This document shows, in pieces, positions 24,317 to 58,658 of a DNA stretch of 64,000 nt. Origin of the DNA: an uncultured Gammaproteobacteria bacterium. Lineage in GTDB: Bacteria > Patescibacteriota > Patescibacteriia > CAZGFX01. The stretch's first letter is position 1. Each line of letters begins with the position of its first letter. The stretch lies in the NCBI GenBank assembly GCA_964524845.1, contig CAZGFX010000002.1, forward strand, positions 85,389 through 149,388, in the 5' to 3' direction. Made by a program: the position numbers and the translations under genes. The notes beneath the pieces were generated by a model that made no database searches, was not told where the DNA came from, and saw nothing but the letters and a program-made list of their open reading frames with translations.

Positions 24317-24320
24317 ATTT

Positions 24321-36185: not shown

Positions 36186-36239
36186 TATATAAATCCAATT
36201 AAAAAGTGTACAATATCCTCATGCTCACTCTATAATTCT

Positions 36240-39784: not shown

Positions 39785-39817
39785 CACGCGCATTATCCAA
39801 ATAATGTTCTTGGTGTT

Positions 39818-41056: not shown

Positions 41057-42183
41057 CTATAATGTTTTGACGCATGTTGAAAAGCTTCGTGTGACATTGA
41101 CTTGCGAACATCAGGAGAAGCAAATAAATATTCAATTTTTTCTCTAAGATCAAGTATATTGCCTGGTTTTACAAGAAGCCCCATCACGCCTTCTCTGGCA
41201 ACCGAACGAACGCCTGGTAAATCAGATGCGATTACTGGGGTTCCTTGTGACATTGATTCTGCTAATACTATTCCAAAAGCCTCTGTTTTATCTATGGACG
41301 GCAAAATAGTAACATAAGCGCCTTTATACGCAGCACGAAGCTCCTCATCGCTTACGCGACCAGCGAACACGACTCGATCTCTCATGTTATATAAACCTAC
41401 AAAATCCTCATAATACTTCCTCATGTTTCCATCTCCGCATATAACAAGCCGAATATCGTCTGTTTCCATAATAGCCCCCAATAGACGATCAAGACCCTTA
41501 AAATAATGTGCCTTATCAAGGGCGGCAACAAATAAAATATATGGGTGGTCTGTGTTTATATTAAATTTTGATAAAAACGAGGATGGGTCTATTTGTGAAA
41601 AAAACAACTCGTTTACCCCAAAAGGCATTTCGACACACCTATCAACATATTCGGATATTTCCGAGTGACGAATATAATCAATCGATGCCGTACCTATCTT
41701 CTCGGCACGACGAATAATTAAATTGTTAAATAGTTTTTTATATATTTCAAAAAAAATTTTTTTAAACCAAGTACCGACAGGATCGAAATGATACCATACA
41801 TAATAAGGTATTTTCCGCGCGCGGGCCGCGGCTACTGCCCATTCAATAAACCCGAATGACGGATAATGACACAAAACACAATCACAGTCTCGGATATATT
41901 TCATGACACTAGGAGCATATCCAGCTATACCAATAGTAAAAAGAGGGCTGATGCGAATAACTCTCACACCATTTAAATATTCTTCTTCGTTTTCCCTAAT
42001 TTTAATATCATTTAATTCTTTTTTTTCATTAATAGACAGGCTATTTTTCAACGATTTGTTTTCTGGCACAAGTACTGTCACCGCGTGCCCGCGCGCCACA
42101 AGTCCCTCGGCTTGTTCTTTGGCGACTGCCGCCTGTCCTCCGCGATATGGAGCATATACTGATGTAACTATAATAATATTCAT
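40996..42183 (-). CDS. glycosyltransferase family 4
   Basis: EAFGIVLAESMSQGTPVIASDLPGVRSVAREGVMGLLV. Confidence 0.8.
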   Translation of the reverse strand: MNIIIVTSVYAPYRGGQAAVAKEQAEGLVARGHAVTVLVPENKSLKNSLSINEKKELNDIKIRENEEEYLNGVRVIRISPLFTIGIAGYAPSVMKYIRDCDCVLCHYPSFGFIEWAVAAARARKIPYYVWYHFDPVGTWFKKIFFEIYKKLFNNLIIRRAEKIGTASIDYIRHSEISEYVDRCVEMPFGVNELFFSQIDPSSFLSKFNINTDHPYILFVAALDKAHYFKGLDRLLGAIMETDDIRLVICGDGNMRKYYEDFVGLYNMRDRVVFAGRVSDEELRAAYKGAYVTILPSIDKTEAFGIVLAESMSQGTPVIASDLPGVRSVAREGVMGLLVKPGNILDLREKIEYLFASPDVRKSMSHEAFQHASKHYRWPIHVEALERFLMSESQKR

Positions 42184-42187
42184 ATGT

Positions 42188-43306
42188 TTATCGTATCAAA
42201 CCATGAATAAAACGTATACATGTCCAATACACACACAAACAAGGATTGACAATATAATAAAGCAAAAAATTTTTCACTTTTTCACTCTTAACGTCGCATA
42301 CAAATCGTTTATAAAAATCTGATCTGTATATTTTCCAAACAGATCTAATATGTGCTTTATCATGCCGTATATTCTTCCAAACCTCAACTGAAAACAACTG
42401 TTTATATACCAACATCTTTTTTGGAAACCAACCATGAATAATAGAATATCCGAGTGTGCCTACTTCAAATGCAAAAAGCACTGGAAAAATAAAAAATAAC
42501 ATCCATAGATCAAAGTACGTAAAAAGAAATATATATCTATTTCGCTCCATATAATTTATTAGTCCTACACTTCCGGAAAAAGAATATTTATGATACACAA
42601 TTGATTCTGGTTCAACATATACATCATAACCAGCAATAATTGCACGCATACAAAATTCGAGATCTTCGTGATACATAAAATAAAAATCTCTAAACATACC
42701 AATTTCTGATATTATATTTATCGGAATACACACTGCCGCTCCGCTACAATATGTATATTTATGATGTTTCCAATCAATTTCACTTTCGCTCACTCCTTCG
42801 GCTCCGGCATATCCAATACCATAAAACGTAGCTAGATTCCCGGCGCTATTTACAATACGATTTGTACCATATTCAATAAGAAGAGACTGAATAATCCTCT
42901 TCTTGTTGAGTTTTTCAGCTGTCTCAATAATACAATCAATAGCGTTTGAATCTATTTCTGTATCTTGGTTTAGCAAAAAAACATAATCGAAATTGTTTTT
43001 TTTACAAAACTCTATGCCTTTATTATTTCCTCCTGCAAAACCAAGATTTTTTTCAGAAAAAATTAAATGCAATGGAAACTTGATAATAGAACGGCCTTCT
43101 TCAACGCGCTTATTCGAATCATCTGGGGACGCATTATCAACATAAATAATTTCCGGAACACACTTGTTTGTATTAATTTTTGAAATAGATAAAAAAAGAG
43201 GGTGTATATATGACGCTGCATTATACCCCACAATTATAACTCCAACTCTTGGTTTATTATTCATGTTTTGTATCATGTGTTTCCATTGATGTGTTTTCTT
43301 TTCCAT
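42188..43306 (-). CDS. glycosyltransferase family 2 with C-terminal membrane segment
   Basis: VGVIIVGYNAASYI...YVDNASPDDS...LLNQDTEID; start may be at a downstream in-frame Met. Confidence 0.75.
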   Translation of the reverse strand: MEKKTHQWKHMIQNMNNKPRVGVIIVGYNAASYIHPLFLSISKINTNKCVPEIIYVDNASPDDSNKRVEEGRSIIKFPLHLIFSEKNLGFAGGNNKGIEFCKKNNFDYVFLLNQDTEIDSNAIDCIIETAEKLNKKRIIQSLLIEYGTNRIVNSAGNLATFYGIGYAGAEGVSESEIDWKHHKYTYCSGAAVCIPINIISEIGMFRDFYFMYHEDLEFCMRAIIAGYDVYVEPESIVYHKYSFSGSVGLINYMERNRYIFLFTYFDLWMLFFIFPVLFAFEVGTLGYSIIHGWFPKKMLVYKQLFSVEVWKNIRHDKAHIRSVWKIYRSDFYKRFVCDVKSEKVKNFLLYYIVNPCLCVYWTCIRFIHGLIR

Positions 43307-43649
43307 TTTCTATGTTTTTTCCATGCACAGCTTTCTCATGCCCTAATATACGAATCAGGCGTGTCATATCGTACTGAAGTTTTTGTATCCTAGCAAGAAG
43401 TCTAAATACAGAATAAAATAATACTAAAATTGAAACATAAACCAAAAGATCAGCACCACGCGCCACACCTACATACGAAGCCAGAATATCAGTACTCTTT
43501 GGAGACAAAGCTGCAAGTGCCAACAAAATCCAAAAAACGAGCCAAATATACATACTCGGGGTTGAAACTTGTTTGTTGCGATGCTGACGAATTGTCTTGA
43601 TAATGACAAACACAACAAAGATGAGAATCGCGTATTGAATTACCATCAT
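43257..43649 (-). CDS. small membrane protein, DUF2304-like GT2 partner
   Basis: 130 aa, 3-4 TM; sits immediately downstream of a DPM1-like GT2. Confidence 0.55.
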   Translation of the reverse strand: MMVIQYAILIFVVFVIIKTIRQHRNKQVSTPSMYIWLVFWILLALAALSPKSTDILASYVGVARGADLLVYVSILVLFYSVFRLLARIQKLQYDMTRLIRILGHEKAVHGKNIENGKENTSMETHDTKHE

Positions 43650-43650
43650 A

Positions 43651-44322
43651 TTATTTTATAAATTTACCCAAAAGAAGTTCCTTTATTATTCGAAGACCTC
43701 CTAACAATCCTTGTCCATACTCTGCATAAAGAATATCAACGGGACGCTCAACAAAGCGAAGTTTATGAATTGATATTTCTTCAATAATTTCAGAAGCATG
43801 CGCCATTCTATCTTGAGTAATACGAATTGTCCTAGCAGCATGAGAAGATAATGCTCGAAAACCATTGTGTGCATCAGTAAGCCACAAACCCGTAAAGAAA
43901 AAATTTATTAACTTTGAAACAGGGAGCACGATCGCTCTTTTGGAAAAAGGAATATTCTTTTTGTCAGCTCCTTTTAAAAATCTAGATCCAAGAACAATAT
44001 CTGATTCTTTTGAAATGATTGGTTGTATCATTCTTTCTATATCCTTTACTTGGTGTTGCCCATCGCTATCAAAATGAATTATAATGTCAGCACCAATAGA
44101 CAGTGCATACTCCGTCCCAGTTGCTAATGCTGCCCCCTGTCCAAGATTGATACAATGTTCTATATATATACATGGTAACGAGCAAAGTATTTCCCGAGTA
44201 TTATCTTTCGATCCATCATTCACAGTAATAACTTCATCAACATGGGAACATAATTTTATAATAACATCGCTTACTGTTTCTGCGACGTTAAAACAAGGAA
44301 CAACTGCGACTATCTTCGGCAT
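43651..44322 (-). CDS. polyprenol-phosphate glycosyltransferase (GT2, DPM1/GtrB/ArnC-like)
   Basis: KIVAVVPCFNVAETV...TVNDGSKDNT...HFDSDGQH motifs. Confidence 0.8.
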   Translation of the reverse strand: MPKIVAVVPCFNVAETVSDVIIKLCSHVDEVITVNDGSKDNTREILCSLPCIYIEHCINLGQGAALATGTEYALSIGADIIIHFDSDGQHQVKDIERMIQPIISKESDIVLGSRFLKGADKKNIPFSKRAIVLPVSKLINFFFTGLWLTDAHNGFRALSSHAARTIRITQDRMAHASEIIEEISIHKLRFVERPVDILYAEYGQGLLGGLRIIKELLLGKFIK

Positions 44323-44333
44323 ACAAATAATAA

Positions 44334-45383
44334 TTATTTAATATCATTCATTGACAAACTGTCTACCATTTCGGACATCGTCACTGTATTGAGTGTTGTG
44401 CGCATATATTCGATCGTTCTGGTAATTCCATCCTGAAGTGTGACGAGAGGAAGCCAACCAAGTTGATTTTTTACCATGTTTGTATCAGGAAGAACAGAAT
44501 ATGTACTGAACGGAAGTGTTTCTCCTTGTCTTAATTCTGAAGCAGATCCTGCCAATCCAATAATCAACTGAGCGGTTTCAGTAACTGACACACCTATAGA
44601 CTGTCCTATGTTTATAGGAGACGATATTTCAGATACTGATAATTTTATTAACGCATCAACCATATCATCAATATAACAATATGATTGTTTTGCTTTTGGA
44701 TCACCATAAATAACAATATCCTTGTTTGAAAGCGCCGTTAATATAAGTTCTGGGATCAATCTCCCTGATTGAGCCGACATACGAGGTCCGTACGTATTAA
44801 AAATACGAGCAATTTTAATATCTAGATTATATACGTTACGATAATTTATAGCCATTGTCTCAGCAAACCTCTTCCCTTCATAATAAGCGCTTCTAGGTCC
44901 AGTAAAATCTACAATGCCAACATTTTTTTCGTTATAATATAAGTTATCACTAGATGGTTCTCCATATACAGATGATGTAGAACCATGAACGAATACGGAT
45001 CCATAAGTACGCGTCATCTCGAGAAGATTTTTTATAACCAACGAATTTGCATCTAATGTATTAATAACATACTTGGTAAAGTTTTTTACCGATATCGGAC
45101 ATGCAAAATTAAATATTGTTTGTATTCCCTGAAATCGTACTTTAAATTTATCAAGTTCGGGAACAGTATTTAAATCAATAGGAACCGAGCAGTCGTGATT
45201 CAAAAATACGAATTTCGGATGCTGTAAAAGATGTTGTATATTATCAATTTGGCTAGTTACAAAATTATCTATACAAATTATATGGTGTCCTTCAGCAAGT
45301 AATCGTTCACACACATGGGAACCTATAAATCCGGCTCCTCCTGCAACTACTATATTTTTCTCTTTATATGTTTGTGAGGTCAT
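44334..45383 (-). CDS. NAD-dependent epimerase/dehydratase, UDP-glucuronate decarboxylase-like (UXS/ArnA-type SDR)
   Basis: Rossmann [13 protein letters not shown]; catalytic region [13 protein letters not shown] resembles the UXS YDEGKR motif. Confidence 0.7.
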
Positions 45384-45467
45384 TGTTGTATATAAAAACT
45401 ATTACGATACCTACATTGTATCAATCAGACGCCGTTTTAACAAGGAGCTAAAATACTAAAAAATGGC

Positions 45468-46217
45468 TTAATAACAGGGTTTTTTCTTTATGCGGAACAG
45501 TCGTCTATGTACAAACCGAATATGAAGAAGATCATATAATACACGAGCATAGTCGAAAAGCAGCACTGTTGAACTCGTGTCGTTGACCCATCTAACAGGA
45601 ACTTCTTTAATTTTCAAGTCGTGTTTTTTCGCAATATATAAAAGTTCAAAATCAAATGAGAACCTCCTTGTTACTTGTTCATCCAAAAAATGTTTGAACA
45701 TTTTATTAAAAAGTTTAAAACCACATTGAGTGTCTCGTATAGATAATCCGAGTATCTTTCGAATCAAAAAATTACCAACCTTTCCAAGTGTTTCTTTGTA
45801 CCACACCTGATGTACTTCTATAATTGAATCAGACAAACCCCTTGAACCTATAATTACATCATAATCCGCGATATATTGGATGAGTTTTTCTAGTTCACAA
45901 ATATCTGTCGAGAAATCTGCGTCTATCATAAGCATCCATTCATAACGCGCATCGCGGAAGCCTGTATTTACAGCAAAACCCTTCCCTTCGTTCGGCGAAT
46001 ATGAAATTACACGAACCGGATCACCAAATCCTTCCGCGATGCGCGCGGTCGCATCCGTAGACCCATCATTCACAACAATAACCTCATATATATATCCGCG
46101 AGCATTACAATATGAACAAATACGAGTAATCGCTGAAGCAATTGATTTCTCTTCGTTGTATACAGGAACGATAACTGAAAGCGAGAACCGATTTTGTGTT
46201 AATGGTGTCATATACAA
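45468..46217 (-). CDS. polyprenol-phosphate glycosyltransferase (GT2, DPM1-like)
   Basis: LSVIVPVYNEEKSI...VVNDGSTDAT...MIDADFSTD. Confidence 0.8.
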   Translation of the reverse strand: MYMTPLTQNRFSLSVIVPVYNEEKSIASAITRICSYCNARGYIYEVIVVNDGSTDATARIAEGFGDPVRVISYSPNEGKGFAVNTGFRDARYEWMLMIDADFSTDICELEKLIQYIADYDVIIGSRGLSDSIIEVHQVWYKETLGKVGNFLIRKILGLSIRDTQCGFKLFNKMFKHFLDEQVTRRFSFDFELLYIAKKHDLKIKEVPVRWVNDTSSTVLLFDYARVLYDLLHIRFVHRRLFRIKKKPCY

Positions 46218-46292
46218 AGGTTTCCTAATACAAAATAATTATTATAATATAAGTATAGCAACAAATATAATTCTTTCATACAAAAACCATAT

Positions 46293-46754
46293 TTATTCAT
46301 CATGCGCTGACAAAGATGTCAGCTTATGCCGAAAAGTCCAAAACTTGTTACCAAAAAAATTGACTAATACCGTACAAGCAACCGCGCACAGCTTCGCTAT
46401 AATAACATGATATTCCAATGTTCCGTGTATAACATATAAAACAAGTTCAGATACACCTAGTCCGAGAAGCGCGACAATAAAAAATTTAGGTATTTCATAA
46501 TAAGCTTTGCCGGAAGATCGAAATGTAAATTTTCTGTTCAATGTAAAACTCAATAATACAGAAAAAATAAAAGAAACTATGTTTGTAATCAGATAATAAT
46601 ATTGAAAAAAAGAAACCGAAAACACAAGAAGCCAAAAAACTCCGATATCAAATAACGTTACAATGCCACCAATAAAAGAAAACATTATAAAATCTCCGAA
46701 TACCGAATCACGAACAATTCGATACGGCTTCCACAATCTTAATCTCTCCACCAT
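46293..46754 (-). CDS. GtrA family membrane protein
   Basis: 153 aa, 4 TM, FIGGIVTLFDIGVFWLL...NRKFTFRS pattern typical of GtrA. Confidence 0.65.
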   Translation of the reverse strand: MVERLRLWKPYRIVRDSVFGDFIMFSFIGGIVTLFDIGVFWLLVFSVSFFQYYYLITNIVSFIFSVLLSFTLNRKFTFRSSGKAYYEIPKFFIVALLGLGVSELVLYVIHGTLEYHVIIAKLCAVACTVLVNFFGNKFWTFRHKLTSLSAHDE

Positions 46755-48760
46755 ACACCATCTCTCAAGTGAATTAGATCAAAATCCCAAACATTTTTTA
46801 TCGGAACCTTATCATACCTATCAAAAAAATTTGTTGATATGACTCCGTCTCGGTTTGAAGGAAGAGTGAATACTACATCTTGTTTATCATCAAGAACACC
46901 TCTTAAATAATCAACTTTTTTACTATCATTTATCACGTCGTCTTTTAAATACTCATAAGCCGATGAATAATTATGTAGCCTATTCCAAGAATATGAGTAT
47001 AATTTATCATCTGTTAAATATAATCGTTTTCCATATCTATTATTTCTTCCGCTTTCATATTGAACCAATCCACTTCCATCCGCGTTCGAAACCGCCATAT
47101 CTTTTTTCCAGCCCTCTCTCGCATCACTTAAGATAACTGCTACCTCTGGATTTCCATCAGCATTTAAATCTCTTACATCAACATCATAACCGGCTATTAA
47201 TTTAGGAGATAGAGCGAACCACTGCGCATAAACTTTACCAAACATATCAAATACTCTTACATGAGGACCTCCTCCTCTATATGGCACTGTAACAATTAAA
47301 TCCTTCTCCCACTTACCACCTAATTGTCTTCCGAGTGGACCGTTTCTCCTTATCGTATCAACACGAACACCTCCGATAAAAAGATCTCCATACGCCTGAA
47401 ACCTTGTTCGAAATATGCCATCGTATTCAAACACATCAACAATTGATTTCCTTCCATTAATATATGAAACGGCTATTTCATCAACTCCGTCTGCATCGAA
47501 ATCTCCGGTCGTCATCTGCACATCATCTAGTGCCCCTCGATATATTAAAAATGATTGTATGATATTTCCTTCTGTCGTTACTATGCGTAAATAATACTTT
47601 CCGTTTTCTTGCACAATAACAGCAAGGACCGTGTGCGGAACAATTGTAATTGCTTTGATTATTGAATCAACGATATTGAGGGCTCTCACCGTCGTTCCTT
47701 CTGATCCTAGTGGTGTCGCATTATTAATCAAAAGATCTCTGATTTCAGAGTTTGTATAATATGGATACTCCGACATTATATACGCGGCGGCGGCGGAAAC
47801 AAACCCAGTAGCAAGAGACGTTCCCCACCATCCTGTTCCTACAGTATCTCGAAGCGTCGAACGTTCATATTCGTACGTAAGCGTTGAAATAATTTGTTCA
47901 CCGATTGCATAAATATCAACGCACGTATCTCCAACATTTGAAAAAACTGACACGGATTTTGTTTTTGCTATAGAACCAACCCCAATAACTATATTATCAG
48001 AAAAAACTGAACACACCGGATATAATGGCTTGTCGTTTAAATTTCTTCTTACAGCACCATCTTTGTATTCTCCGTTTCCAGCCGCCGCTACTATGAGTAC
48101 ACCGTGATCCCATGCATATTGAATGGCTTTTTTGAGCTCAAGACTTTCCTTTCCTGATATAAAACTCATGTTTATTACTCTCGCTCCATGATCTACTGCG
48201 TAATATATTCCTTTGATAACTGCATTAATATCTCCTATACCGTTCGCGGCGACAGCGCGAATAGGCATTATTTTTATATTTCCTTTTCCAACTCCTACCG
48301 TCCCGTTTCCATTGTGTTCGGCCGCGATAATTCCAGCAATAAAAGTTCCGTGATGCATGGCTTCGTATGATGCACCAGTTGATGTAACAGGAGATGGATT
48401 GCTATCGTTATCAGCAAAATCCCATCCATTATAATCATCTGTATATCCATTATAATCATCATCTTTCCCGTTTCCTGGTATTTCACGATAATTATGCCAG
48501 ATATTTTTCATGAGATCAGGATGATCAAGGTCAACCCCGGAATCAATAACAGCAACAACAACTTGATTTACACCATTATAATCAGTCCAAACCTTCTCCA
48601 TTTCCATCGTACGTAAATAATCCATGTTCACATACATCGAATCGCCTGGTATATATGTTTTTATTATTTGTACATCTTGCGCCTCAGCAAACACACCAAA
48701 AAACATTCCTATACAAATAGGAATTATAAGAAGTTTTCGTGCTATCTCATGCCATTTCAC
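46739..48760 (-). CDS. secreted subtilisin-like serine protease (peptidase S8) with C-terminal FG-GAP-like repeats
   Basis: Signal peptide; catalytic triad regions VAVIDSGVDLDHPDL, HGTFIAGIIAA, GTSLATGFVSAAAAYI; C-terminal DFDADGVDEIAV / RDLNADGNPEVAV repeats. GTG start. Confidence 0.85.
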   Translation of the reverse strand: MKWHEIARKLLIIPICIGMFFGVFAEAQDVQIIKTYIPGDSMYVNMDYLRTMEMEKVWTDYNGVNQVVVAVIDSGVDLDHPDLMKNIWHNYREIPGNGKDDDYNGYTDDYNGWDFADNDSNPSPVTSTGASYEAMHHGTFIAGIIAAEHNGNGTVGVGKGNIKIMPIRAVAANGIGDINAVIKGIYYAVDHGARVINMSFISGKESLELKKAIQYAWDHGVLIVAAAGNGEYKDGAVRRNLNDKPLYPVCSVFSDNIVIGVGSIAKTKSVSVFSNVGDTCVDIYAIGEQIISTLTYEYERSTLRDTVGTGWWGTSLATGFVSAAAAYIMSEYPYYTNSEIRDLLINNATPLGSEGTTVRALNIVDSIIKAITIVPHTVLAVIVQENGKYYLRIVTTEGNIIQSFLIYRGALDDVQMTTGDFDADGVDEIAVSYINGRKSIVDVFEYDGIFRTRFQAYGDLFIGGVRVDTIRRNGPLGRQLGGKWEKDLIVTVPYRGGGPHVRVFDMFGKVYAQWFALSPKLIAGYDVDVRDLNADGNPEVAVILSDAREGWKKDMAVSNADGSGLVQYESGRNNRYGKRLYLTDDKLYSYSWNRLHNYSSAYEYLKDDVINDSKKVDYLRGVLDDKQDVVFTLPSNRDGVISTNFFDRYDKVPIKNVWDFDLIHLRDGVWWRD

Positions 48761-49059: not shown

Positions 49060-49335
49060 TCATAATAACAAATCTTTGAGTTCCGGATTATACTCTTTTA
49101 TCAAATTCCATTTCCACTTTCTGTGCCAACGTTTTAATTGCTTTTCTCTTTCTAGTGCATCATATATGGACTCGTATTCTTCTGTGAACACTAATTTCGT
49201 CAAATGATATCTACGCGTAAACACGCCTCCTTTCTTGTTTCTATGAAACATCACACGACGAATAATATCGTTAGTGACACCAATATATAAGGTTGTGTTG
49301 GTATAATTTGTTAAGATATAAACGTAGTAAGACAT
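49060..49335 (-). CDS. GIY-YIG nuclease family protein (small, UPF0213-like)
   Basis: 91 aa; YVYILTN...LYIGVTNDIIRRVMFH...GG.FTRRY...E.EKQLKRW pattern of the GIY-YIG fold. Confidence 0.8.
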   Translation of the reverse strand: MSYYVYILTNYTNTTLYIGVTNDIIRRVMFHRNKKGGVFTRRYHLTKLVFTEEYESIYDALEREKQLKRWHRKWKWNLIKEYNPELKDLLL

Positions 49336-49460: not shown

Positions 49461-49494
49461 AAAACTCCCCCGCCCGAAGGCAAGGGGAGTTTTT
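49461..49494 (-). terminator. rho-independent terminator of the large surface-protein gene
   Basis: GC-rich hairpin ACTCCCC-(GCC-CGAA-GGC)-GGGGAGT with U-run on the minus transcript, 30 nt after the stop. Confidence 0.6.
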
Positions 49495-49525: not shown

Positions 49526-52500
49526 TTAGTACGTAGTAACAGCACCGAGAACAGGCAACGACGGTGAGAATGTAGAATTAACAGTTGTTGAGTTGTCGAA
49601 CGCTGAGATATACGAGTAAGGAACAGGGCCTGCGGTTGCAGGGAATGGGCCAGCTGAACCCTCGAGACGACTAGAAAGCGTCACATTAGATTGAACCGGA
49701 GCTGGTGCATTAGCACCATCCATCTTGATGTTTGAGGTGTTAGCATAGAGTCTGAACTCTTTTGAATTACCCTGAGTAATCGTAATTGCTGATGTAAGCG
49801 CGAACTGTACCGTCTGAGAAGAGACAGTAGCAGTAAGTGTAGCTGGGATCGCCACATCACTTGAATCCTTAAGAACGTAACCGGTAACTTTACAATTTGT
49901 GATTGTAACACCGCTACACGCTGGTACGATATCACCATCGAACGAAGAGAAAGGACCGTTTGAACCGGAGATAGTAAATGTGATTTGAGTCATAGTGAGA
50001 TCTCTTCCACCATCAGCCTTAATGCTGTATTTGCCAATCATTTGATTAGCCTGTGGAGCTAGTGTCGTATTTGACATTGTGCTTGTCATAACAGCAACAA
50101 CATCATCGGCTCTGTGTACTCTTATCGCATGCTTAGCATTTGTATAGAGAGCACCAGCTGTTCCAGCTGCGTTTTCTGTCATGTTAATAACATAAACACC
50201 TGCCGTACCATAAGCCGTATCTCCAATTGTTGGAGCTGTTGTAAGAGTTGATAATGCGGCACCGATTGCAACGCCTGCTGCATTTGTAACAACAGCGAAG
50301 CCTGTGGATGCGGTTCCTACAGTATCAGCTACGAACACTAGGTCACCTGGTTCATAAACTACTTCAGCATTTGTGCTTGTATTATCAGCAAGACCCAGTC
50401 TTGAGATTCTATAAGCACTTGACCACGTAGTTGTACCAGCAGCGCTGTTGAAAATAACAGTACCACCGTTAAAATCAGCTACGTTTGTTGTAATGCCATA
50501 CGCTGGATATGTAACACCAGCAGTAGCACCTGTAGAATAGATGAACTGGCCACTAACAGAAGATTGTGTTCCGTTTGGCAAGAATGTATCAGCTGCAGTA
50601 AGAGTACCTGCAACTTCCTGCGACAAGTTTGATACGAGACCGACTGAGTCGATGTCGAATATAACAGGCGCGATCAGTTGAGTAGCAGCTGCATTTGTAG
50701 CAAGAGCTTGAATAGCAGCGGCATCAGCCTTTACAGTCAATACTTTTGAGCTTCCCTTCTCAACTGAAACAGTTAAACCAGAGAAGCTTGCTTCGTATCG
50801 AGCTGAAGTGCTGTTGTACTGCAATGGCTGTTCGCCAATCTTCGTAGCGCCATCATAGAGATATACTCTTGTGATGTTCTTATCGAAGTTGAGGCCTCCC
50901 ATGACAATCTTACTGATCTTCGCACCTTCAACTAGGTTGGAAGTGAATTTGAAGTCAGCGAGGTTTGCCATAGTCTGGCTTGCAACGATGATAGACGAAG
51001 ACACTGCGGATGTCGGATCATACGAGAAGCTTAGTAAGCCACCCGTCGTTGACATCGTCATGATCTGAAGATCGGTTGCAGCTGCAGTCAAAGACTTGTT
51101 TGATGGTACTGCGACACCAGTAGCTGCTGCCGTAAGCCTCAATGAAGCATTATCAGAAACACCAGATGAAGCAATAGAACCAACAACCCGAATTTGAACA
51201 GATGCATTTGCAGCTAGGTTCAATTCTCCAGAAACAGAGAATGTTGGTGAGCTAGCCGGAGTCGACTGTGTATCACCAATCTTGACCCATGCTGAACCTG
51301 ACCACTTGTAAAGCATAACGTTGGAAATTTTGTTTCCAGCAAATGCATTTGTATTCGCGCCAGTTGGGAATGTATTTCCAGCTGTTCGTGTACCAATGGT
51401 AAAGTTCGAAACATTTGCACCCTCAGCAGCAGCCGTTGAAAGAACGAACTGTGCTAGAGGAGCGGCTGTAGAACCGGTAACGATAGTAGTGCTTGGCAAT
51501 GAGTTATCAATAGCAATATTCATTGAAGAATCTTCTACTGACAATGTGTTTGCTGGAACACCAGATGTATGAAGACTAACACCCGCTCCTACAGAAGTAC
51601 TACCATTTGTTTGGTTAAGATTGCTTGAAAGAAGTTTAACTTCCCATCCATTCAAAACACCCTTAATCTGACTATTTATAGGGAAGTGAGTAGAATCGGA
51701 AGATTCGCTCTTCAATTGAGCAACTAATTTAACCTGTTTTGTCTGGCCGGCAGGAATCGTGAGATAAGGAGACAATGTGTACTTAACAACATAATATGTA
51801 TTTGCGGCAATAGATCCTTTCGGAACATTTACGTTTGATACAGAAGATGCTATTGAGTTATTGTTTCCATCCCATAGACCAGCTGTGTCAAGATTTCTGT
51901 TTGTACCAGCTGTTCCATCGGTTGCGTAACCAACATAGATTACACGAACCTCTGTGTCTTCACCAGCAGCAACAAAATCATATACACCTATCGTTTGGTT
52001 TGAACCTGCAGCCACCTTATTTGAAGGAGACGATGGAGATAAACCTAATGACTGTGTACCCTGATTAATGTTGTGTAATGAGATATTATCTGATGAGGAA
52101 GTAATTTTATCACCAATTGGGAAAGTTGTGTCATTGCTTGTATCAACTTTAGGCAAGAAACTTACGCCGGTCTCAAGACCACGAAGCGTTATGTCTTCTG
52201 CTTGTTCTACAACAAGTTGAAGTGTTCTGCTTGTCCCACCAATAACATCAGCTTTTACAGTCAATGTTACGGTATTGCCTTCTGCCATTGACAATCCGGT
52301 CGTCGTAATGACAGCCTGATTGTTTACATTAAGCGACGAAACAGAACCAATAAGAGCACCGGTTGATTCGTTATATACTTTTATATTCTGTATATCAGAT
52401 GCAGTTGCAGTACCTCTGTTTGTAAGAACGATTCGATCTATTGCAATCTGCTCGTTAGTTACTTCAAAGATTTTGAACTGCGCAATAACTTCTCCTGTGT

Positions 52501-53716
52501 CGCCAACATCAAGATTCTGAGAATAATTTCCTACAGAACCGATGCGGGCACTTCCAAGTAAGGTGCTACCATCAATAATAGACATTTCATTGCCTCTTAT
52601 TGGAAATGTTCCACGAACAGTACCACCAGAAATAGTGATGCCTGTAGCAGACTCAATTCCGAGCGCAATTGTACCATTATTATTACCTGCCTCTACAATG
52701 TCAGCAGCTAGATAAACAGTAGTTGTCTGACCGGCAGTCAATGCGATAGGATCGCTTGTGAAGTTAATAGTTGCATAACCATTATACAAGCTTACCGTAC
52801 CACCATGACGGTTGTTGTTTGAATCAAGAATTTTGACACCTTCAAGTATATTATCACTTGATACGCCATATCTCTTGATTGTAACTCCAGTCAAGTTTAC
52901 CGCAGTGCTTGCGCCGTTGGTAACGTTGATTGCAGTCATTTTAAAGTTACCAGCTCCATCAGGTACAGTCATAGAAGCTGGAGTGCTTGAAGCCAATGAG
53001 AATGTGATATCTCCTGAAATAACTGGAGAACCACCACCTGTTGGATAATCCAACAAAGTAGTCTCAAGGCCTGTGATAGAAGTACCGATATTGAATGCAG
53101 ATACTGCGCCAGCAGTAACTTCATGTACAAACTCGTTTCTGAACATGTTTGCAGTGAATGCAGACTCAGAAGCGAATGGGCGGCGTTTGCTACCCTCAAT
53201 ATAGTACTTAGTACCATCTACTTTTATCAATTGACCGGTTGGGAACTGGTTCACCGTAGAAATTGCGGTGCCGGTATGATAAGTAGCGGCGAATGTATTC
53301 GGATTAATATCTTTGATCCACTGATTCCAGTTTGATCCGAATAATGAAGCTGCGATTGTTTCAGAGCCGACGTGGCGAATTGAAGCGCCATTCTCGACTG
53401 CATAGGTCTCGGAAAAATCCGGAACCTTAACCATCCAAGTACCAGAGCGAACGCCCATAGTACCAGCTAGATGGAATGCAGCGAAGTCAGCATCAGAAAC
53501 AGTCTGCACAGCATCGAAATTTTCATATCGAGAAAAGAACTCGACTTGTGAAGGGAAAGTGTACAAACCATTGTTTCCGCCTACGAAATATACGGTCGTT
53601 GAAGATGCTTTCTTAACGAGAGCTCCTTCATTGTAAGTAGCTGCTGCTACATCTGTGTAGATGAGAAGCGATGCCACTACCGTGAACAAGGCAAAAACTT
53701 TTCTGAATTTACTCAT
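49526..53716 (-). CDS. large secreted Thr/Ser/Ala/Gly-rich surface protein (putative S-layer or adhesin-like)
   Basis: 1396 aa; signal peptide MSKFRKVFALFTVVASLLIYTDVAAA; N-terminal pair of about 85-aa repeats, then long low-complexity region; no LPXTG. Gene is much more GC-rich than surroundings. Confidence 0.7.
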   Translation of the reverse strand: MSKFRKVFALFTVVASLLIYTDVAAATYNEGALVKKASSTTVYFVGGNNGLYTFPSQVEFFSRYENFDAVQTVSDADFAAFHLAGTMGVRSGTWMVKVPDFSETYAVENGASIRHVGSETIAASLFGSNWNQWIKDINPNTFAATYHTGTAISTVNQFPTGQLIKVDGTKYYIEGSKRRPFASESAFTANMFRNEFVHEVTAGAVSAFNIGTSITGLETTLLDYPTGGGSPVISGDITFSLASSTPASMTVPDGAGNFKMTAINVTNGASTAVNLTGVTIKRYGVSSDNILEGVKILDSNNNRHGGTVSLYNGYATINFTSDPIALTAGQTTTVYLAADIVEAGNNNGTIALGIESATGITISGGTVRGTFPIRGNEMSIIDGSTLLGSARIGSVGNYSQNLDVGDTGEVIAQFKIFEVTNEQIAIDRIVLTNRGTATASDIQNIKVYNESTGALIGSVSSLNVNNQAVITTTGLSMAEGNTVTLTVKADVIGGTSRTLQLVVEQAEDITLRGLETGVSFLPKVDTSNDTTFPIGDKITSSSDNISLHNINQGTQSLGLSPSSPSNKVAAGSNQTIGVYDFVAAGEDTEVRVIYVGYATDGTAGTNRNLDTAGLWDGNNNSIASSVSNVNVPKGSIAANTYYVVKYTLSPYLTIPAGQTKQVKLVAQLKSESSDSTHFPINSQIKGVLNGWEVKLLSSNLNQTNGSTSVGAGVSLHTSGVPANTLSVEDSSMNIAIDNSLPSTTIVTGSTAAPLAQFVLSTAAAEGANVSNFTIGTRTAGNTFPTGANTNAFAGNKISNVMLYKWSGSAWVKIGDTQSTPASSPTFSVSGELNLAANASVQIRVVGSIASSGVSDNASLRLTAAATGVAVPSNKSLTAAATDLQIMTMSTTGGLLSFSYDPTSAVSSSIIVASQTMANLADFKFTSNLVEGAKISKIVMGGLNFDKNITRVYLYDGATKIGEQPLQYNSTSARYEASFSGLTVSVEKGSSKVLTVKADAAAIQALATNAAATQLIAPVIFDIDSVGLVSNLSQEVAGTLTAADTFLPNGTQSSVSGQFIYSTGATAGVTYPAYGITTNVADFNGGTVIFNSAAGTTTWSSAYRISRLGLADNTSTNAEVVYEPGDLVFVADTVGTASTGFAVVTNAAGVAIGAALSTLTTAPTIGDTAYGTAGVYVINMTENAAGTAGALYTNAKHAIRVHRADDVVAVMTSTMSNTTLAPQANQMIGKYSIKADGGRDLTMTQITFTISGSNGPFSSFDGDIVPACSGVTITNCKVTGYVLKDSSDVAIPATLTATVSSQTVQFALTSAITITQGNSKEFRLYANTSNIKMDGANAPAPVQSNVTLSSRLEGSAGPFPATAGPVPYSYISAFDNSTTVNSTFSPSLPVLGAVTTY

Positions 53717-53871: not shown

Positions 53872-55032
53872 TTATTTGTTTTCATCCTGTGAAGTCACCG
53901 ACGCATCCTTATTTACAGGAGTGTCTTTTACCAACTCTCTTCCATAATCATCAAATCTTTGTCGTGTCCGTTCAGCGTTAAAGATCGCCTGTAACTTCTG
54001 TATTTCGTTTATTGAATCACTGAACTTATCGGTCGCTACATGTGCCTCAATACTCTTTTTGGTCTCTTCTACTTGTTGATCTAGAAGTCTGTAATGTTTC
54101 TGTTCTTCCAATAAATTATTATATCGCACCTGCTCTTCGAAAGAATCAATATATAAAAACTCATTTCCAATAATAATATTTCGTTTTATTTCTTTCGTAT
54201 ATATATCCATAAGTTCTCCCAATACTTCTATAATACGATCTGATATATCCTTCTTTGTAAGAACATCCGGACTTATATTACCGGCTTCAAAATTCATAAC
54301 AAGATCTTTGAATACGGAAAAACTCAATGTATCGAGATCGTTTTGTGCATCATCGATTACATTGTTATGATTGGTATCAATTGACTTGATATCCATGTTT
54401 TTAAGAGTTTCTGATATTTCTCCAGCAGTATTCTGAACTGTTTGTGATAATGTGAAATAACGAGTGTTTTTCTGATCTTGAGAATCGCTTTTTGTCGCAT
54501 TCGCATCCTGTTTAACAACGTCTAGAAGTTCACGAGCAGAAACAACTTCTGCTTTTGCAGTTGTTACTGTCTTTTTTATTGCGATCAAATTGCTTCCCGC
54601 ATCACGTTCTGCTAGTTTTTGTGCCTCAACTATACGTCTTGATGCATATTTGAGACGAAGCTCAGCCTCTGCATTCGGTGATGTGGTTACCATAAGAGAC
54701 ACCTTCTCTTTCATTATTTTAATTGGATAAAGAGTATCACCAGGTACAGTATCATCAGCGCTTGCTAGAAAGACTCCTCCCGAAAGCATTACCACGCACG
54801 CCACAGCTATACTTCTCGATAAAACAGAAGTTAGACCGCGTTGAGTATAAAGAAGTGATAAATGAACTAGGTTGTCCAAACGAACACGAGTATTGTCACC
54901 CGTTTGAATACGATGTACATCATGTGCACGAATATGCGCATTAATTTTATCACGGCATGAATATCTAAAACTAAGAGATGGTTTTATCTCTTTCAAATGC
55001 TTAAGTATTCTTGCTGTAACAAAATTATTCAT
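53872..55032 (-). CDS. putative membrane-anchored anti-sigma factor
   Basis: Start moved to ATG at 55032, 13 bp after the ECF sigma stop; one TM (SIAVACVVMLSGGVFLASA), extracytoplasmic coiled-coil-rich domain. Assignment by position and topology. Confidence 0.5.
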   Translation of the reverse strand: MNNFVTARILKHLKEIKPSLSFRYSCRDKINAHIRAHDVHRIQTGDNTRVRLDNLVHLSLLYTQRGLTSVLSRSIAVACVVMLSGGVFLASADDTVPGDTLYPIKIMKEKVSLMVTTSPNAEAELRLKYASRRIVEAQKLAERDAGSNLIAIKKTVTTAKAEVVSARELLDVVKQDANATKSDSQDQKNTRYFTLSQTVQNTAGEISETLKNMDIKSIDTNHNNVIDDAQNDLDTLSFSVFKDLVMNFEAGNISPDVLTKKDISDRIIEVLGELMDIYTKEIKRNIIIGNEFLYIDSFEEQVRYNNLLEEQKHYRLLDQQVEETKKSIEAHVATDKFSDSINEIQKLQAIFNAERTRQRFDDYGRELVKDTPVNKDASVTSQDENK

Positions 55033-55045
55033 TATACAAAAACTG

Positions 55046-55606
55046 TTAATTAATAGGATGATCCTTAAGTGCACGCCGCAATGCTTGTTGCGCTCTCGAT
55101 ACAAGAACCCGAACAGCTCCTGTTGTTTTATCAAGTGCTCGAGCCATATCGCCAATACTCATATCATTAACAAACTTCATTATCAATACTTCTCGATACT
55201 CATCTTTGATCTTCGACATGAGATTATCAAGCTTCTCAATATCGATTTTTATATCTATAAGTATTTCCACATCATTATCAGAAGCAACAAAAGTGTCCTC
55301 ATCATCAATATCAATATGTGTTTCCGTCTGATGTTTGTTTCGAAAAAAATCAATGACCAGATTTCGAGCCGTTCGATAAAAAAGTGCTCTTATATTATCA
55401 ACATTCTTTTCTGATGTAACAATATAATCTAACACCTTAATAAAAGTCTCACTAGTCAAATCCTCGGCATTACTATCGTGTCTTACCTTGAAAAAAACAT
55501 AACGGTATATCTCGTCAAGATACTTGTCATACAGTTTTCCGTACACCTCAGTACGTCCAGACCGTATTTGGAGCACATAAATCTGATCCTGTGCCTCATT
55601 AAACAT
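55046..55606 (-). CDS. RNA polymerase sigma factor, ECF subfamily
   Basis: 186 aa; region 2 (YDKYLDEIYRYVFFKVRHDSNAEDLTSETFIKV) and region 4 (MSIGDMARALDKTTGAVRVLVSRAQQALRRAL). Confidence 0.8.
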   Translation of the reverse strand: MFNEAQDQIYVLQIRSGRTEVYGKLYDKYLDEIYRYVFFKVRHDSNAEDLTSETFIKVLDYIVTSEKNVDNIRALFYRTARNLVIDFFRNKHQTETHIDIDDEDTFVASDNDVEILIDIKIDIEKLDNLMSKIKDEYREVLIMKFVNDMSIGDMARALDKTTGAVRVLVSRAQQALRRALKDHPIN

Positions 55607-55789
55607 ACCGTTCTCGTTATATATGACGATTAAGTGGAGAAAATGTTACAGTTTTGTCACATTTTCATCCTGATTAACATAGATTGACTTGGGGTATTAA
55701 AAAACCCTATACAACTCAATTGGTACAAAAATACAATAAAAACTTGCTTAGTGTATAGGGAAATATCGGGAAAAGTTAAATAGATTATC

Positions 55790-56875
55790 TCATAACGTTA
55801 TTGAGTTTTCAAGTGTTTTATCCCCTCTTTTAACTTTTATTTTTACAATATCACCTTTTTTGTATGTTCCTAAAATTTCACCAATATCGTATTTTTTATC
55901 AATTAATATGTTATCTATTGATATAATTATATCTCCCTTAATCAAATCGAATTGTTGAATATTATTTTTATTCAGATTTGACTGTTTCTTTCCTCCAACA
56001 GAAACAACATAGGCTCCATTCTTTTCTCCGTTAAAGAGTTTGTTTAAATTGTCTTTTTCACCTGCTATAAAAGATATATCAAGACAAGACGCATTTAACA
56101 CCGTTCTTTGAACAAAAGATTTATTCTTTAGAAAATGGCTCACAGTTAGCTCTATATAATCACTTGGAATTATAGTGTCATTTTTATCACCTTTTATTCC
56201 TATTACCAGACCGTTTTTATTGACAATTGGGGTGCCCGGTGAAATATTTGTTATTAATTCACCAACATATCTATCATTTACTTTATCAGAGGTATAAGGA
56301 TTAATTGTATGAGCTGACTGTCGTTCTCTTAAAGAAACGGTATCTATTGCCATATCTTCGAAAACAAACTTAAGGGCATAATAAACGTCACCTTCTACAA
56401 AAGAGTCGGCATTTGCTATCTGTATAGGATTACTTGAGGTGTTATCAATTTTTATAATGAAAAGACCTGTCAATGGATCTTCGTGTGTCTCTAGAATTGG
56501 GAGTATTGTTCTATCAGGAGTAATAATAACCGCATCACGAATCTTGTCTGTTTTATATGATGTCACGAGCCAGCCATCTGACGTCGCCGCAACAGCATAT
56601 CCCATAATATCGGTTCTATCATATAAACTGCCTGTTTTTTTCGGAAGTGCGATTCCAAAAAGTGCATTATTGTTTTTCTCTTTCAGGTTTTTTGTCGAAA
56701 AACGAACCTCTTGTTCACTCAAAACAAAAGGGCGCAAATCCACAGGCTGTTGAATAGCCGTGCCAGCAATATTTTTTATAATCGGAAGAAATGTCTCGTG
56801 ATAAAGAAAAAGACCTCCGACAATACCAACAAAAAGAACCACACACACTATAATAATAAAAGAGAAAATACGCAT
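55790..56875 (-). CDS. membrane-anchored HtrA/DegS-like protein with PDZ-like C-terminus, probably catalytically inactive
   Basis: N-terminal TM; trypsin-like region where the expected TNNHV and GNSGG motifs read TSYKT and SPGTP; C-terminal GAYVVSVGG...GDIIISIDN...GDIVKIKVKRG resembles PDZ. By-eye alignment. Confidence 0.4.
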   Translation of the reverse strand: MRIFSFIIIVCVVLFVGIVGGLFLYHETFLPIIKNIAGTAIQQPVDLRPFVLSEQEVRFSTKNLKEKNNNALFGIALPKKTGSLYDRTDIMGYAVAATSDGWLVTSYKTDKIRDAVIITPDRTILPILETHEDPLTGLFIIKIDNTSSNPIQIANADSFVEGDVYYALKFVFEDMAIDTVSLRERQSAHTINPYTSDKVNDRYVGELITNISPGTPIVNKNGLVIGIKGDKNDTIIPSDYIELTVSHFLKNKSFVQRTVLNASCLDISFIAGEKDNLNKLFNGEKNGAYVVSVGGKKQSNLNKNNIQQFDLIKGDIIISIDNILIDKKYDIGEILGTYKKGDIVKIKVKRGDKTLENSITL

Positions 56876-56916: not shown

Positions 56917-57684
56917 TCAGATCCATCGTGCCGTAAGAAAAACGAGAAGCATTACAAACAAAGTAACGGCGACTATCCTTCGTAAATCGGATCTAAGATA
57001 ATTTTGTGGATTAAGAATATAATAAAACACCTGTATACTTGTATATACTATTATGAATGCCATGAAGGCCTGCACATAAAAAGTAACAGAAGTATATGCG
57101 ATAATCGCCATCATTTGAAGCGTAATAACAGTACCTGATATCACAAACACACGTGCATTATGATATAATACTCTCCGTATCCAAAAACAAAAATAATAGA
57201 AAAATACCACTACAACAATAGAGATTCCGAGCATAAGAGTCAAAGAAATTGTTGTTTTGAGTAAAATACTATAAACCGAAATAAAATATATATACATTCC
57301 TATAAACGCTGTATAACTTAGAATTGAAACAGTTCTATCAGGAAGCAGTGCCGGTTTTGCACGACCGTAATACAATACCTGATCGAAATACACTATGCTC
57401 CATAATAAATATACAACAAGTATTCCCCATTGACGCACAGGGTCATTCTGAAATGAGTATATATAAAACATTGAAGCCGAAACAATCACAGCGAGCCCGC
57501 CGTACAAAACAGCATGAGTCCATTCATCAAACCCAAGAAGATATATAACATATAAAAAAACAAATATCATGCTAATAAAAATAGCCCAATAATAGTATTC
57601 GGGCACATAAGCACCAATTAAAAAAGCACTTCCGACCAGAATGATCGGGACAATGTGAAGAAGTGTTTTTTTAATTATAAACAT
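56917..57684 (-). CDS. polytopic membrane protein, hypothetical
   Basis: 255 aa, about 7-8 TM helices. Confidence 0.45.
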   Translation of the reverse strand: MFIIKKTLLHIVPIILVGSAFLIGAYVPEYYYWAIFISMIFVFLYVIYLLGFDEWTHAVLYGGLAVIVSASMFYIYSFQNDPVRQWGILVVYLLWSIVYFDQVLYYGRAKPALLPDRTVSILSYTAFIGMYIYFISVYSILLKTTISLTLMLGISIVVVVFFYYFCFWIRRVLYHNARVFVISGTVITLQMMAIIAYTSVTFYVQAFMAFIIVYTSIQVFYYILNPQNYLRSDLRRIVAVTLFVMLLVFLTARWI

Positions 57685-57701: not shown

Positions 57702-58289
57702 TTATTTTAATAAACGTTCTGCTTCTAGTTCTATACGATCATCATAAAATATAAGAGAATTATAATTTATTTTATTAATTCCTGATGTAAGAGTTGAAAT
57801 AAATGGAGAAATTAATTTCTCAATTGTTTTTTCTATTGGGGAAGAAAAAAATGTGTCACCAGCAATAACATCTTCTACTGTAATAATCACTTTTTTATCA
57901 ACTAATTTTCCACGAAGAACAAGTGTTAGATGAGTAACTATTGGTTTTGATAAATCAGCATCAAAAACAATTGTGCCATCATTTTTTATATCAACACTAC
58001 TGTTCTTCATGCTTCCTGATTCTGTTGTGTTGTTACCGCTCTCTATCTCCTTTTTAATAAGATTTGAGATATACTCCTCTGTAATAACAAATGTTTTCTC
58101 TCCAACAATAGGGAAAGATGTTTTCCCTTGTATAAAAGATCTGAGTGAATCGTTGGAAATCAAAGGTAAAGACGATGATGTGCCACCTCCTCCGACCAAA
58201 GAGAGAATATTACTCCCATATCGTTGATACGCATAATATCCACCAAAAACGATACCAGCAAGAATAAGAAATATTACAAAAATACGCAT
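57702..58289 (-). CDS. hypothetical membrane-anchored protein
   Basis: 195 aa, N-terminal TM. Confidence 0.45.
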   Translation of the reverse strand: MRIFVIFLILAGIVFGGYYAYQRYGSNILSLVGGGGTSSSLPLISNDSLRSFIQGKTSFPIVGEKTFVITEEYISNLIKKEIESGNNTTESGSMKNSSVDIKNDGTIVFDADLSKPIVTHLTLVLRGKLVDKKVIITVEDVIAGDTFFSSPIEKTIEKLISPFISTLTSGINKINYNSLIFYDDRIELEAERLLK

Positions 58290-58292
58290 AAA

Positions 58293-58658
58293 TTATTTTT
58301 TAAGCAAATCAATTGAAGATGATATCCACTCGTTTTCTCTTTGAAGAGCGACCAGTGTATTAAAATCGTTTTTTAATCTATATTGATGAATTGCAGTTAG
58401 AAGATTCATATGAAACGATCTAAACTCTCCGGGAACGACCATAACGAGAATATTTTTTTCTTTTTTCTCAAGAGATACAGATGCACTGAGAATATCACTG
58501 ATCATTTTTTTATATTCACTAGTAGACGGGACCACATTATTAGCAATGGTTTGTGACAATGGACTATTAACGGCGCGCGGAGAATCATCTTTCCTGATTT
58601 TTTCACACCCAATAGCAATTAATGCCACAACAATAACAAAAGGTATTATTTTTTTCAT
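58293..58658 (-). CDS. putative lipoprotein
   Basis: 121 aa; signal plus lipobox-like LIAIGC. Confidence 0.45.
   Translation of the reverse strand: MKKIIPFVIVVALIAIGCEKIRKDDSPRAVNSPLSQTIANNVVPSTSEYKKMISDILSASVSLEKKEKNILVMVVPGEFRSFHMNLLTAIHQYRLKNDFNTLVALQRENEWISSSIDLLKK

Follow-up and report, generated by a model that had tools for sequence, protein, structure and literature searches.

Gene content of the locus

The window analysed here is a 64-kb stretch (64,000 nucleotides) of contig CAZGFX010000002.1 from an uncultured bacterium of the GTDB lineage Patescibacteriota (GenBank assembly GCA_964524845.1). It contains a locus encoding a membrane-anchored HtrA-like protein with a PDZ domain, an extracytoplasmic function (ECF) sigma factor and a candidate anti-sigma factor. 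All positions are given in window numbering, and every gene of the locus lies on the minus strand. In the direction of transcription the locus begins with up255, an open reading frame (ORF) for a 255-aa polytopic membrane protein (56917-57684), which is followed by the gene for the 361-aa HtrA-like pseudoprotease (55790-56875). Next come an ECF (group 4) sigma factor of 186 aa that is nearest to the BldN type (55046-55606), a DUF5667 protein of 386 aa counted from the ATG, the candidate anti-sigma factor (53872-55032), and a giant, presumably secreted surface protein of 1396 aa rich in Thr, Ala, Ser and Gly (49526-53716). The giant gene is followed by a strong intrinsic-terminator-like hairpin with an 8-pair stem containing 6 GC pairs and a T-run (49467-49486). 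Beyond the hairpin lie a GIY-YIG-like ORF of 91 aa (49060-49335) and the gene for a secreted S8 subtilase (46739-48760; Peptidase_S8 at 5e-46), whose C-terminal region is FG-GAP-like and whose N-terminus is signal-like in a hydropathy scan. Intergenic gaps measure 41 bp between up255 and the HtrA-like gene, 183 bp between the latter and the sigma gene, 13 bp between the sigma and DUF5667 genes and 155 bp between the DUF5667 and giant genes.

The HtrA-like protein has an HtrA fold and has lost the catalytic triad

The HtrA-like protein consists of a membrane anchor (aa 6-24), a trypsin-like domain (approximately aa 70-237) and a PDZ domain (approximately aa 262-361). Family models recognize it only in part. 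Pfam detects PDZ_2 at 6e-07, while the Trypsin_2 match is sub-threshold (0.011; 16.9 bits against a curated 27.6), and the protein scores 29 bits against the curated HtrA family TIGR02037, well below the cut-off of 416. Residues 76-354 nevertheless align with DegQ (6z05) in a phmmer search against the PDB (E 5e-05). An AlphaFold2 (AF2) model built from a 42-sequence alignment reached a predicted local distance difference test (pLDDT) of 86 and a predicted template modelling score (pTM) of 0.75; it was used instead of a single-sequence model with a pLDDT of 37, which we discarded. When this model was compared with the PDB using Foldseek, the top 50 hits were all HtrA proteins, with E-values down to 2e-16 and target TM-scores up to 0.74, the best matches being MucD, DegQ, DegP, Mycobacterium tuberculosis HtrA, Deg8 and DegS. 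Structure prediction thus confirms a trypsin-like double beta-barrel followed by one PDZ domain, the HtrA fold.

The sequence-only reading of this DNA had proposed that the protein lacks the catalytic His and Ser. Alignment confirms this and adds the Asp: the three catalytic positions are occupied by K108 (His; codon 56552-56554), G137 (Asp; codon 56465-56467) and P213 (Ser; codon 56237-56239). The assignment was identical in the phmmer alignment with DegQ 6z05, in a MAFFT alignment of 149 relatives and in a MAFFT alignment with 14 intact HtrA proteins and E. coli DegS. The DegS sequence served only as an anchor; in the same alignment the 14 intact HtrA proteins do carry His, Asp and Ser in these columns. 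One detail of the earlier description changes. SPGTP had been read as the replacement of the GNSGG motif, and while the loss of the motif stands, the register was off by one: ISPGT (211-215) is the aligned segment, placing Pro213 and not Gly214 at the nucleophile position. Both checks proposed for the protein, alignment and structure prediction, therefore gave the same picture of a trypsin-plus-PDZ fold whose catalytic triad is absent, as judged from sequence.

A family of triad-less HtrA proteins in bacteria of the Candidate Phyla Radiation

With a word-indexed homology search the HtrA-like protein matched only itself. A phmmer search of 1.84e9 cluster representatives (50% identity) was more productive and retrieved 565 relatives at E<=1e-3, the closest of which is 30% identical to the window copy. 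The best 150 of these 565 are all 285-450 aa long, share the same layout and are 19-32% identical. Source labels such as 'S1C family serine protease [Patescibacteria group bacterium]' and 'serine protease [Candidatus Uhrbacteria bacterium]' place members in the Candidate Phyla Radiation (CPR; Patescibacteria).

Loss of the triad is a property of the family. Among 172 members the His column contains S, D, A, E, K or G, with His in a single sequence; the Asp column is mostly Gly (91 members), with Asp in 28 and Asn in 13; and the Ser column varies between L, A, P, S, V and N, with Ser in 17. His, Asp and Ser occur together in none of the 172. The loss is therefore ancient, and the protein has been maintained without its triad instead of decaying locally. 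Residues of the scaffold are kept across the family, namely the motif [LVI]TSDGW[LIV], D133, K142, G214, P216, G222 and G226, and no His is conserved. Most members also conserve the PDZ carboxylate-binding loop R-P-x-L-G-[VIL]-x-Y. In this loop the window copy has N261 in place of the Gly found in 82% of the family and C264 in place of the Tyr (56090-56095, 56084-56086), so that, judging by these substitutions, its PDZ domain may differ in binding from those of other members.

We found no Pfam or NCBIfam model specific to the family and no description of it in the literature, including searches for HtrA combined with 'Candidate Phyla Radiation'. This large, CPR-wide family is apparently undescribed. 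For analysis of gene neighborhoods, a metagenome scan with the motif [LVA]TSDGW[LI]VT added 57 loci, and local profile searches over all loci gave 60 distinct loci with a triad-less HtrA. Fetched loci are referred to below by L numbers.

A polytopic membrane protein is the conserved partner

The gene directly upstream of the HtrA-like gene, up255, encodes a protein with about 8-9 hydrophobic segments according to a hydropathy scan and a C-terminal L-x-T-A-x-W motif; it has no Pfam match and no protease motifs. When we looked up six genomes with a triad-less HtrA, five had a protein of about 250 aa without Pfam domains immediately upstream, and none of the six had an ECF sigma gene nearby. Local profile searches over all loci extended this result: in 38 of the 42 distinct loci with at least 900 bp of upstream DNA, an up255 homolog adjoins the HtrA gene upstream on the same strand, mostly 1-40 bp away. 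These homologs are highly divergent yet alignable and have the C-terminal L-x-T-A-x-W in common. Recurrent neighbors of the gene pair are of envelope type and include GT4, Wzz-like, Wzy_C, MurJ and DUF4012 proteins; the window, with its glycan cluster beyond the subtilase gene, fits this pattern. Overall, gene order indicates that the conserved partner of the triad-less HtrA is a polytopic membrane protein of about 250 aa, not the sigma/anti-sigma pair.

Immediately 5' of up255 in the window, two minus-strand genes encode small membrane proteins with a single anchor (57702-58289, 195 aa; 58293-58658, 121 aa). The 121-aa protein weakly resembles (E 0.003) a 152-aa protein at the equivalent relative position in L001 and L007, and by this likeness the conserved cluster may reach past the gene pair.

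The ECF sigma factor is paired with a DUF5667 protein

The sigma factor contains sigma regions 2 and 4 only (Sigma70_r2 and Sigma70_r4_2, both at about 1e-10 in Pfam). Its score of 68.3 bits against TIGR02937 exceeds the cut-off of 42.9 and places it in the ECF superfamily. The nearest family is that of BldN, of which it is not a member (TIGR02952; 112.9 bits, cut-off 206.45). Similarly, its best solved relative is sigma-BldN in complex with RsbN (6dxo, 1e-20).

The downstream protein matches DUF5667 (PF18915) at 1e-10, with 42.2 bits against a gathering threshold of 27. A cytoplasmic N-terminus of about 65 aa is followed by one membrane helix, the extracytoplasmic DUF5667 domain (VPGDTLYPIK) and a charged helical tail. 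Ten diverse DUF5667 homologs display the same layout, in which a membrane helix separates a short cytoplasmic N-terminus from the DUF5667 domain. Neither the window protein nor any of the ten contains an RseA-like or other anti-sigma Pfam domain, and in PDB profile searches the DUF5667 N-termini showed no similarity to RsbN 1-91 or any solved anti-sigma factor, returning only membrane-helix noise of the KcsA type.

The evidence for a pair comes from gene order. A genome scan with a DUF5667 motif gave 32 loci in Patescibacteria, Chloroflexota and Acidimicrobiia, to which two looked-up loci were added. Upstream DNA is available for 33 loci, and in every one of them the DUF5667 gene is immediately preceded by an ECF sigma gene in the same orientation, often with overlapping stop and start codons; an ECF sigma gene is also found immediately 5' of the DUF5667 gene in L050, L053 and L086. 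The sequence-only reading had named an ECF sigma factor with a membrane anti-sigma candidate 13 bp downstream, and both the ORFs and this synteny bear it out. By synteny, the sigma factor and the DUF5667 protein appear to behave as a sigma/anti-sigma pair. Clustering of the neighboring ORFs revealed no universal third partner of the pair, only clade-specific genes, and a literature search found no description of DUF5667. The pair is an ordinary kind of system with an uncharacterized class of anti-sigma factor.

A conserved candidate promoter precedes the sigma gene

A candidate ECF-type promoter, TGTAAC-N16-CGTC (55625-55650, minus strand), ends 19 nt before the start codon of the sigma gene. 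It is the single match in the window, even when one mismatch is allowed. The best orthologs of the sigma factor, which are 37-40% identical, are encoded in L009, L050, L053 and L086, and the same motif is located 45-53 nt before each of these genes. Across 1.035 Mb of fetched DNA, searched on both strands, the exact motif has six matches, five of which are the sigma-gene sites of the five orthologous loci. The sixth is in L012 (4999-5024, plus strand), 1.5 kb upstream of the sigma gene of that locus. An AAC-type -35 element combined with a CGT-type -10 element directly before the sigma gene is the arrangement expected for ECF autoregulation and, by sequence, suggests that the sigma factor reads its own promoter.

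In the orthologous loci the sigma ATG follows the -10 CGTC by about 8 nt (L009 5384-5419, L050 1482-1517, L053 11450-11485, L086 11205-11240), compared with 19 nt in the window; at such a distance the sigma mRNA is probably leaderless in these four loci. In L050, L053 and L086, a near-consensus sigma-70 promoter (TTGAC-N17-TATAAT) additionally stands just 5' of the ECF motif.

The sequence-only reading had suggested mapping ECF-type promoters upstream of the surface-protein and subtilase genes. No such motif was found before either gene, exact or relaxed, in the window or the orthologous loci, and a looser pattern, GAAC-N15-18-CGTM, matched at chance level.

The giant surface protein follows the sigma/DUF5667 pair

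The giant protein has an N-terminal signal-like segment according to the hydropathy scan and no Pfam, NCBIfam or PDB match. As the sequence-only reading had placed it, its gene comes next after the sigma/DUF5667 pair, and this arrangement recurs in related genomes: in L009, L018, L053 and L086 a homolog begins 218-267 bp beyond the DUF5667 gene. In the window, the 155 bp between the DUF5667 and giant genes contain neither a predicted terminator nor a predicted sigma-70-like promoter. As no terminator precedes 49486, transcription probably continues into the giant gene. We infer that the genes for the sigma factor, the anti-sigma factor and the surface protein form an autoregulated operon, of which the giant protein is the likely output.

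L009, too, has an S8 homolog (a 48% identical fragment) downstream of its giant gene, and there a 438-aa ORF takes the place of the 91-aa GIY-YIG-like ORF of the window. Possible substrates of the S8 subtilase are the surface protein and the anti-sigma factor. Further downstream in the window, an envelope-glycan cluster (34395-46754) encodes GtrA, three GT2 proteins, an NAD-dependent epimerase/dehydratase, DUF2304, two GT4 proteins, a Wzx-like flippase and PMT_2. This cluster may plausibly glycosylate the Thr/Ser-rich giant protein, which is probably glycosylated.

The two gene modules are rarely linked

According to the sequence-only reading, transcription runs through the HtrA-like gene into the sigma gene. 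Such read-through is at most a possibility, and the 183-bp gap between the two genes carries a conserved candidate promoter. The same reading saw the HtrA-like protein as a DegS-like sensor for the sigma pair, and gene linkage offers little support for it. Among the other triad-less HtrA loci with at least 3 kb of flanking DNA, 2 of 36 have sigma/DUF5667 genes in the flank. Conversely, 1 of the 32 DUF5667 loci from genomes has a triad-less HtrA within 8 kb (L015, 4.7 kb apart). Together with the constant partner up255 and the sigma gene's own promoter, these counts leave the sensor reading unsupported. The comparison of the layout with sigmaE-RseA-DegS envelope-stress signaling is justified in gene content; conserved co-localization and an RseA-type domain are missing.

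Proximity of the modules does recur among the closest relatives of the sigma factor. In L050, L053 and L086 the sigma gene is preceded, at a distance of 0.55-2.4 kb, by an up255/triad-less HtrA pair. These three loci are closely related, with sigma factors that are 61-65% identical and with L053 and L086 collinear throughout, and opposite-strand genes stand between the modules in all three, including an HTH_17 gene divergent from the sigma gene. L009 shares this HTH_17 gene and the sigma module, with no triad-less HtrA within 5.4 kb upstream. The recurring proximity thus looks like inherited gene order and not like a common transcription unit. The small HTH_17 genes (L009 4273-4671, L050 1026-1313, L053 10998-11267, L086 10656-10931) are 60-75% identical to each other, and the gene is absent from the window.

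Other genes in the window

A few minus-strand genes elsewhere in the window deserve mention. A SecD protein (28070-29812) carries a peptidyl-prolyl isomerase (rotamase) domain of the PpiC type between the first SecD domain and the P1 head, and is followed by a separate SecF gene (27163-28065). A 360-aa protein (25942-27024) combines an N-terminal Sigma70 region 4 with a HARE-HTH domain near residue 240, an unusual pairing. Finally, the gene at 22424-24367 encodes a TrwB/VirD4-like coupling ATPase (DUF87/HerA, TraG-D_C) that also bears a treble-clef zinc finger, a hint that an apparatus for DNA uptake or a conjugation-like process may be present.

Proposed mechanism and alternative explanations

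We propose that the locus comprises two independent envelope modules that stand side by side, and put the probability of this reading at roughly 60%. The proposal builds on observed or computed gene content, fold, triad loss, synteny and promoter conservation, from which we infer the binding and regulatory steps. Module 1 (56917-55790) would consist of up255 and the membrane-anchored triad-less HtrA-PDZ protein, a tight gene pair conserved across CPR bacteria. The most likely role of the HtrA protein is to serve up255, on the outer side of the membrane, as a subunit that binds or scaffolds without proteolysis, such as a holdase or adaptor, and the pair may take part in envelope or surface-glycan biogenesis. 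Module 2 (55650-49467) would be built from the BldN-like ECF sigma factor and the single-pass DUF5667 anti-sigma factor, which is predicted to retain the sigma factor at the membrane until an extracytoplasmic cue frees it. The freed sigma factor would then read its own TGTAAC-N16-CGTC promoter, and transcription would probably extend into the gene for the giant surface protein. Maturation of this protein is probably carried out by the S8 subtilase and the downstream glycosylation cluster.

Several observations weigh against this proposal. The anti-sigma role of the DUF5667 protein is argued from synteny, and the protein has no recognized anti-sigma domain. Since no ECF motif precedes the giant and S8 genes, control of these genes by the sigma factor rests on gene order and the missing terminator. 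Divergence of up255 is so strong that just two columns stay invariant. The metagenome loci were gathered with the single motif [LVA]TSDGW[LI]VT and cover part of the family, and the locus sample is biased by the search motifs. Moreover, the modules are near each other in two lineages with orthologous sigma factors, the window and L050/L053/L086, and also in L015. This proximity may exceed chance and could mean a weak functional tie between the modules, which we consider improbable.

One such tie would make the HtrA-PDZ protein a sensor of an envelope signal that modulates the DUF5667 anti-sigma factor without cutting it, a DegS-like input to the ECF sigma factor at least in this lineage. The two modules of the window are on the same strand and 183 bp apart, their counterparts are near each other in L050, L053 and L086 and separated by 4.7 kb in L015, and both the HtrA and the DUF5667 proteins have domains exposed outside the membrane. 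Some DUF5667 homologs have hydrophobic C-termini of the PDZ-binding type, for example P0003 (...KLPF) and P0004 (...HISL). The anti-sigma factor of the window, however, ends in ...QDENK, and the PDZ carboxylate-binding loop of the window's HtrA copy lacks the Gly (N261). Linkage is absent from 34 of the 36 other triad-less HtrA loci and from 31 of the 32 DUF5667 loci. Moreover, L050, L053 and L086 count as one lineage with opposite-strand genes between the modules, and L009 has the orthologous sigma module with no triad-less HtrA within the 5.4 kb upstream. The sigma gene also has its own conserved promoter, and the constant partner of the HtrA protein is up255. We therefore regard a DegS-like input as quite unlikely. 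The same low odds apply to a combined version, in which the HtrA protein and up255 are an undescribed non-proteolytic CPR module that, in the lineage of the window, would also have come to provide the extracytoplasmic input to the DUF5667 anti-sigma factor controlling a giant surface protein. If true, such recruitment would mean signaling by an HtrA scaffold via binding rather than cleavage.

Alternatively, the triad-less HtrA could activate or target an active HtrA or another protease encoded elsewhere, for instance in a mixed oligomer. MamO sets a precedent for this (PMC4794232), and the HtrA scaffold, including regions through which HtrA proteins oligomerize, is predicted with high confidence. 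Yet neither the 64-kb window nor 100 fetched loci contain a second HtrA-like gene, and the conserved neighbor is a polytopic membrane protein without protease motifs, which leaves this role unlikely. The remaining explanations concern the protein itself, and the conservation pattern of the family disfavors both. Unconventional catalysis could draw on S212, one residue before the nucleophile position, on K108 at the His position, or on T98, S99 and D100, which are conserved in the family. Columns 212, 213 and 108 are, however, not conserved, and the sole Ser, His or Cys conserved at 70% or more is S99, a residue of the TSDGW strand that precedes the His position by about 9 residues and is away from the active-site motifs; that the protein is still a protease seems very improbable. 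Equally improbable is a decaying, functionless remnant. The window copy is very divergent (30% identity to its best relative) and has also lost conserved PDZ-loop residues, but its ORF is intact over 361 codons in a genome with a G+C content of about 34%, its fold is predicted with confidence, the family motifs TSDGW, D133, K142, G214, G222 and G226 are kept, and 60 distinct loci show that the family and its gene pair have been maintained.

Two independent modules thus remain the preferred reading, and of their components the CPR-wide family of triad-less HtrA proteins with a dedicated membrane partner is more novel than the sigma pair. Bacteria of the CPR have tiny genomes and are mostly uncultivated, and a gene pair kept in so many of them likely matters for the envelope. 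That the family keeps fold, anchor, PDZ domain and partner points to a conserved, non-proteolytic job of the HtrA scaffold, for which the database label 'serine protease' is misleading. In addition, the sigma/DUF5667 pair, its promoter and the giant gene make up a concrete candidate circuit for surface remodeling, and DUF5667 gains a candidate function as an anti-sigma factor.

Comparison with known systems

The locus resembles the DegS-RseA-sigmaE system of E. coli in that a membrane-anchored HtrA fold with one PDZ domain stands beside an ECF sigma factor and a single-pass anti-sigma candidate, with all sensing domains outside the cytoplasmic membrane. It differs in several respects. DegS is an active site-1 protease with His, Asp and Ser where the window protein has K, G and P, and the anti-sigma candidate is a DUF5667 protein without an RseA-type domain. 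The gene linkage of triad-less HtrA and sigma factor is not conserved here. In E. coli, degS is not adjacent to rpoE-rseA, so adjacency was never defining for the DegS pathway.

Active-site mutants of DegP show that a PDZ-bearing HtrA scaffold is able to bind envelope proteins in an unfolded state and leave them uncut. By analogy, the triad-less HtrA shares the scaffold and PDZ domain of this chaperone mode and might likewise bind without cutting. In DegP, however, binding is the second activity of an active, cage-forming protease, whereas the triad-less HtrA lacks the triad family-wide, is tethered to the membrane and has a dedicated partner.

MamO of magnetotactic bacteria is an HtrA-type pseudoprotease that activates MamE-dependent proteolysis; it binds metal through a di-His site, is fused to a TauE-like domain and works with the active protease MamE (PMC4794232). 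The likeness lies in a bacterial HtrA/trypsin fold with a degenerate active site that is retained for a non-catalytic role. In contrast to the di-His site of MamO, no His is conserved in the triad-less HtrA family, and in place of the TauE-like fusion its members consist of membrane anchor, protease-like domain and PDZ domain. Their partner is not an active protease such as MamE but a polytopic membrane protein of about 250 aa, and the family is CPR-wide.

The sigma module is closest to sigma-BldN/RsbN of Streptomyces. RsbN, encoded beside its sigma gene, is an anti-sigma factor that crosses the membrane once and has no classical anti-sigma domain, and sigma-BldN drives production of the surface-coat proteins chaplins and rodlins (PMC6101532). 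Sigma-BldN is the nearest solved sigma factor (6dxo, 1e-20) and BldN the nearest NCBIfam family, and the layout of the anti-sigma factors is similar. The window sigma factor stays below the BldN cut-off (113 against 206 bits), and the DUF5667 N-termini have no detectable similarity to RsbN 1-91. Overall, the surface-coat output of sigma-BldN finds its parallel in the surface-protein gene as the likely output of the window's sigma module.

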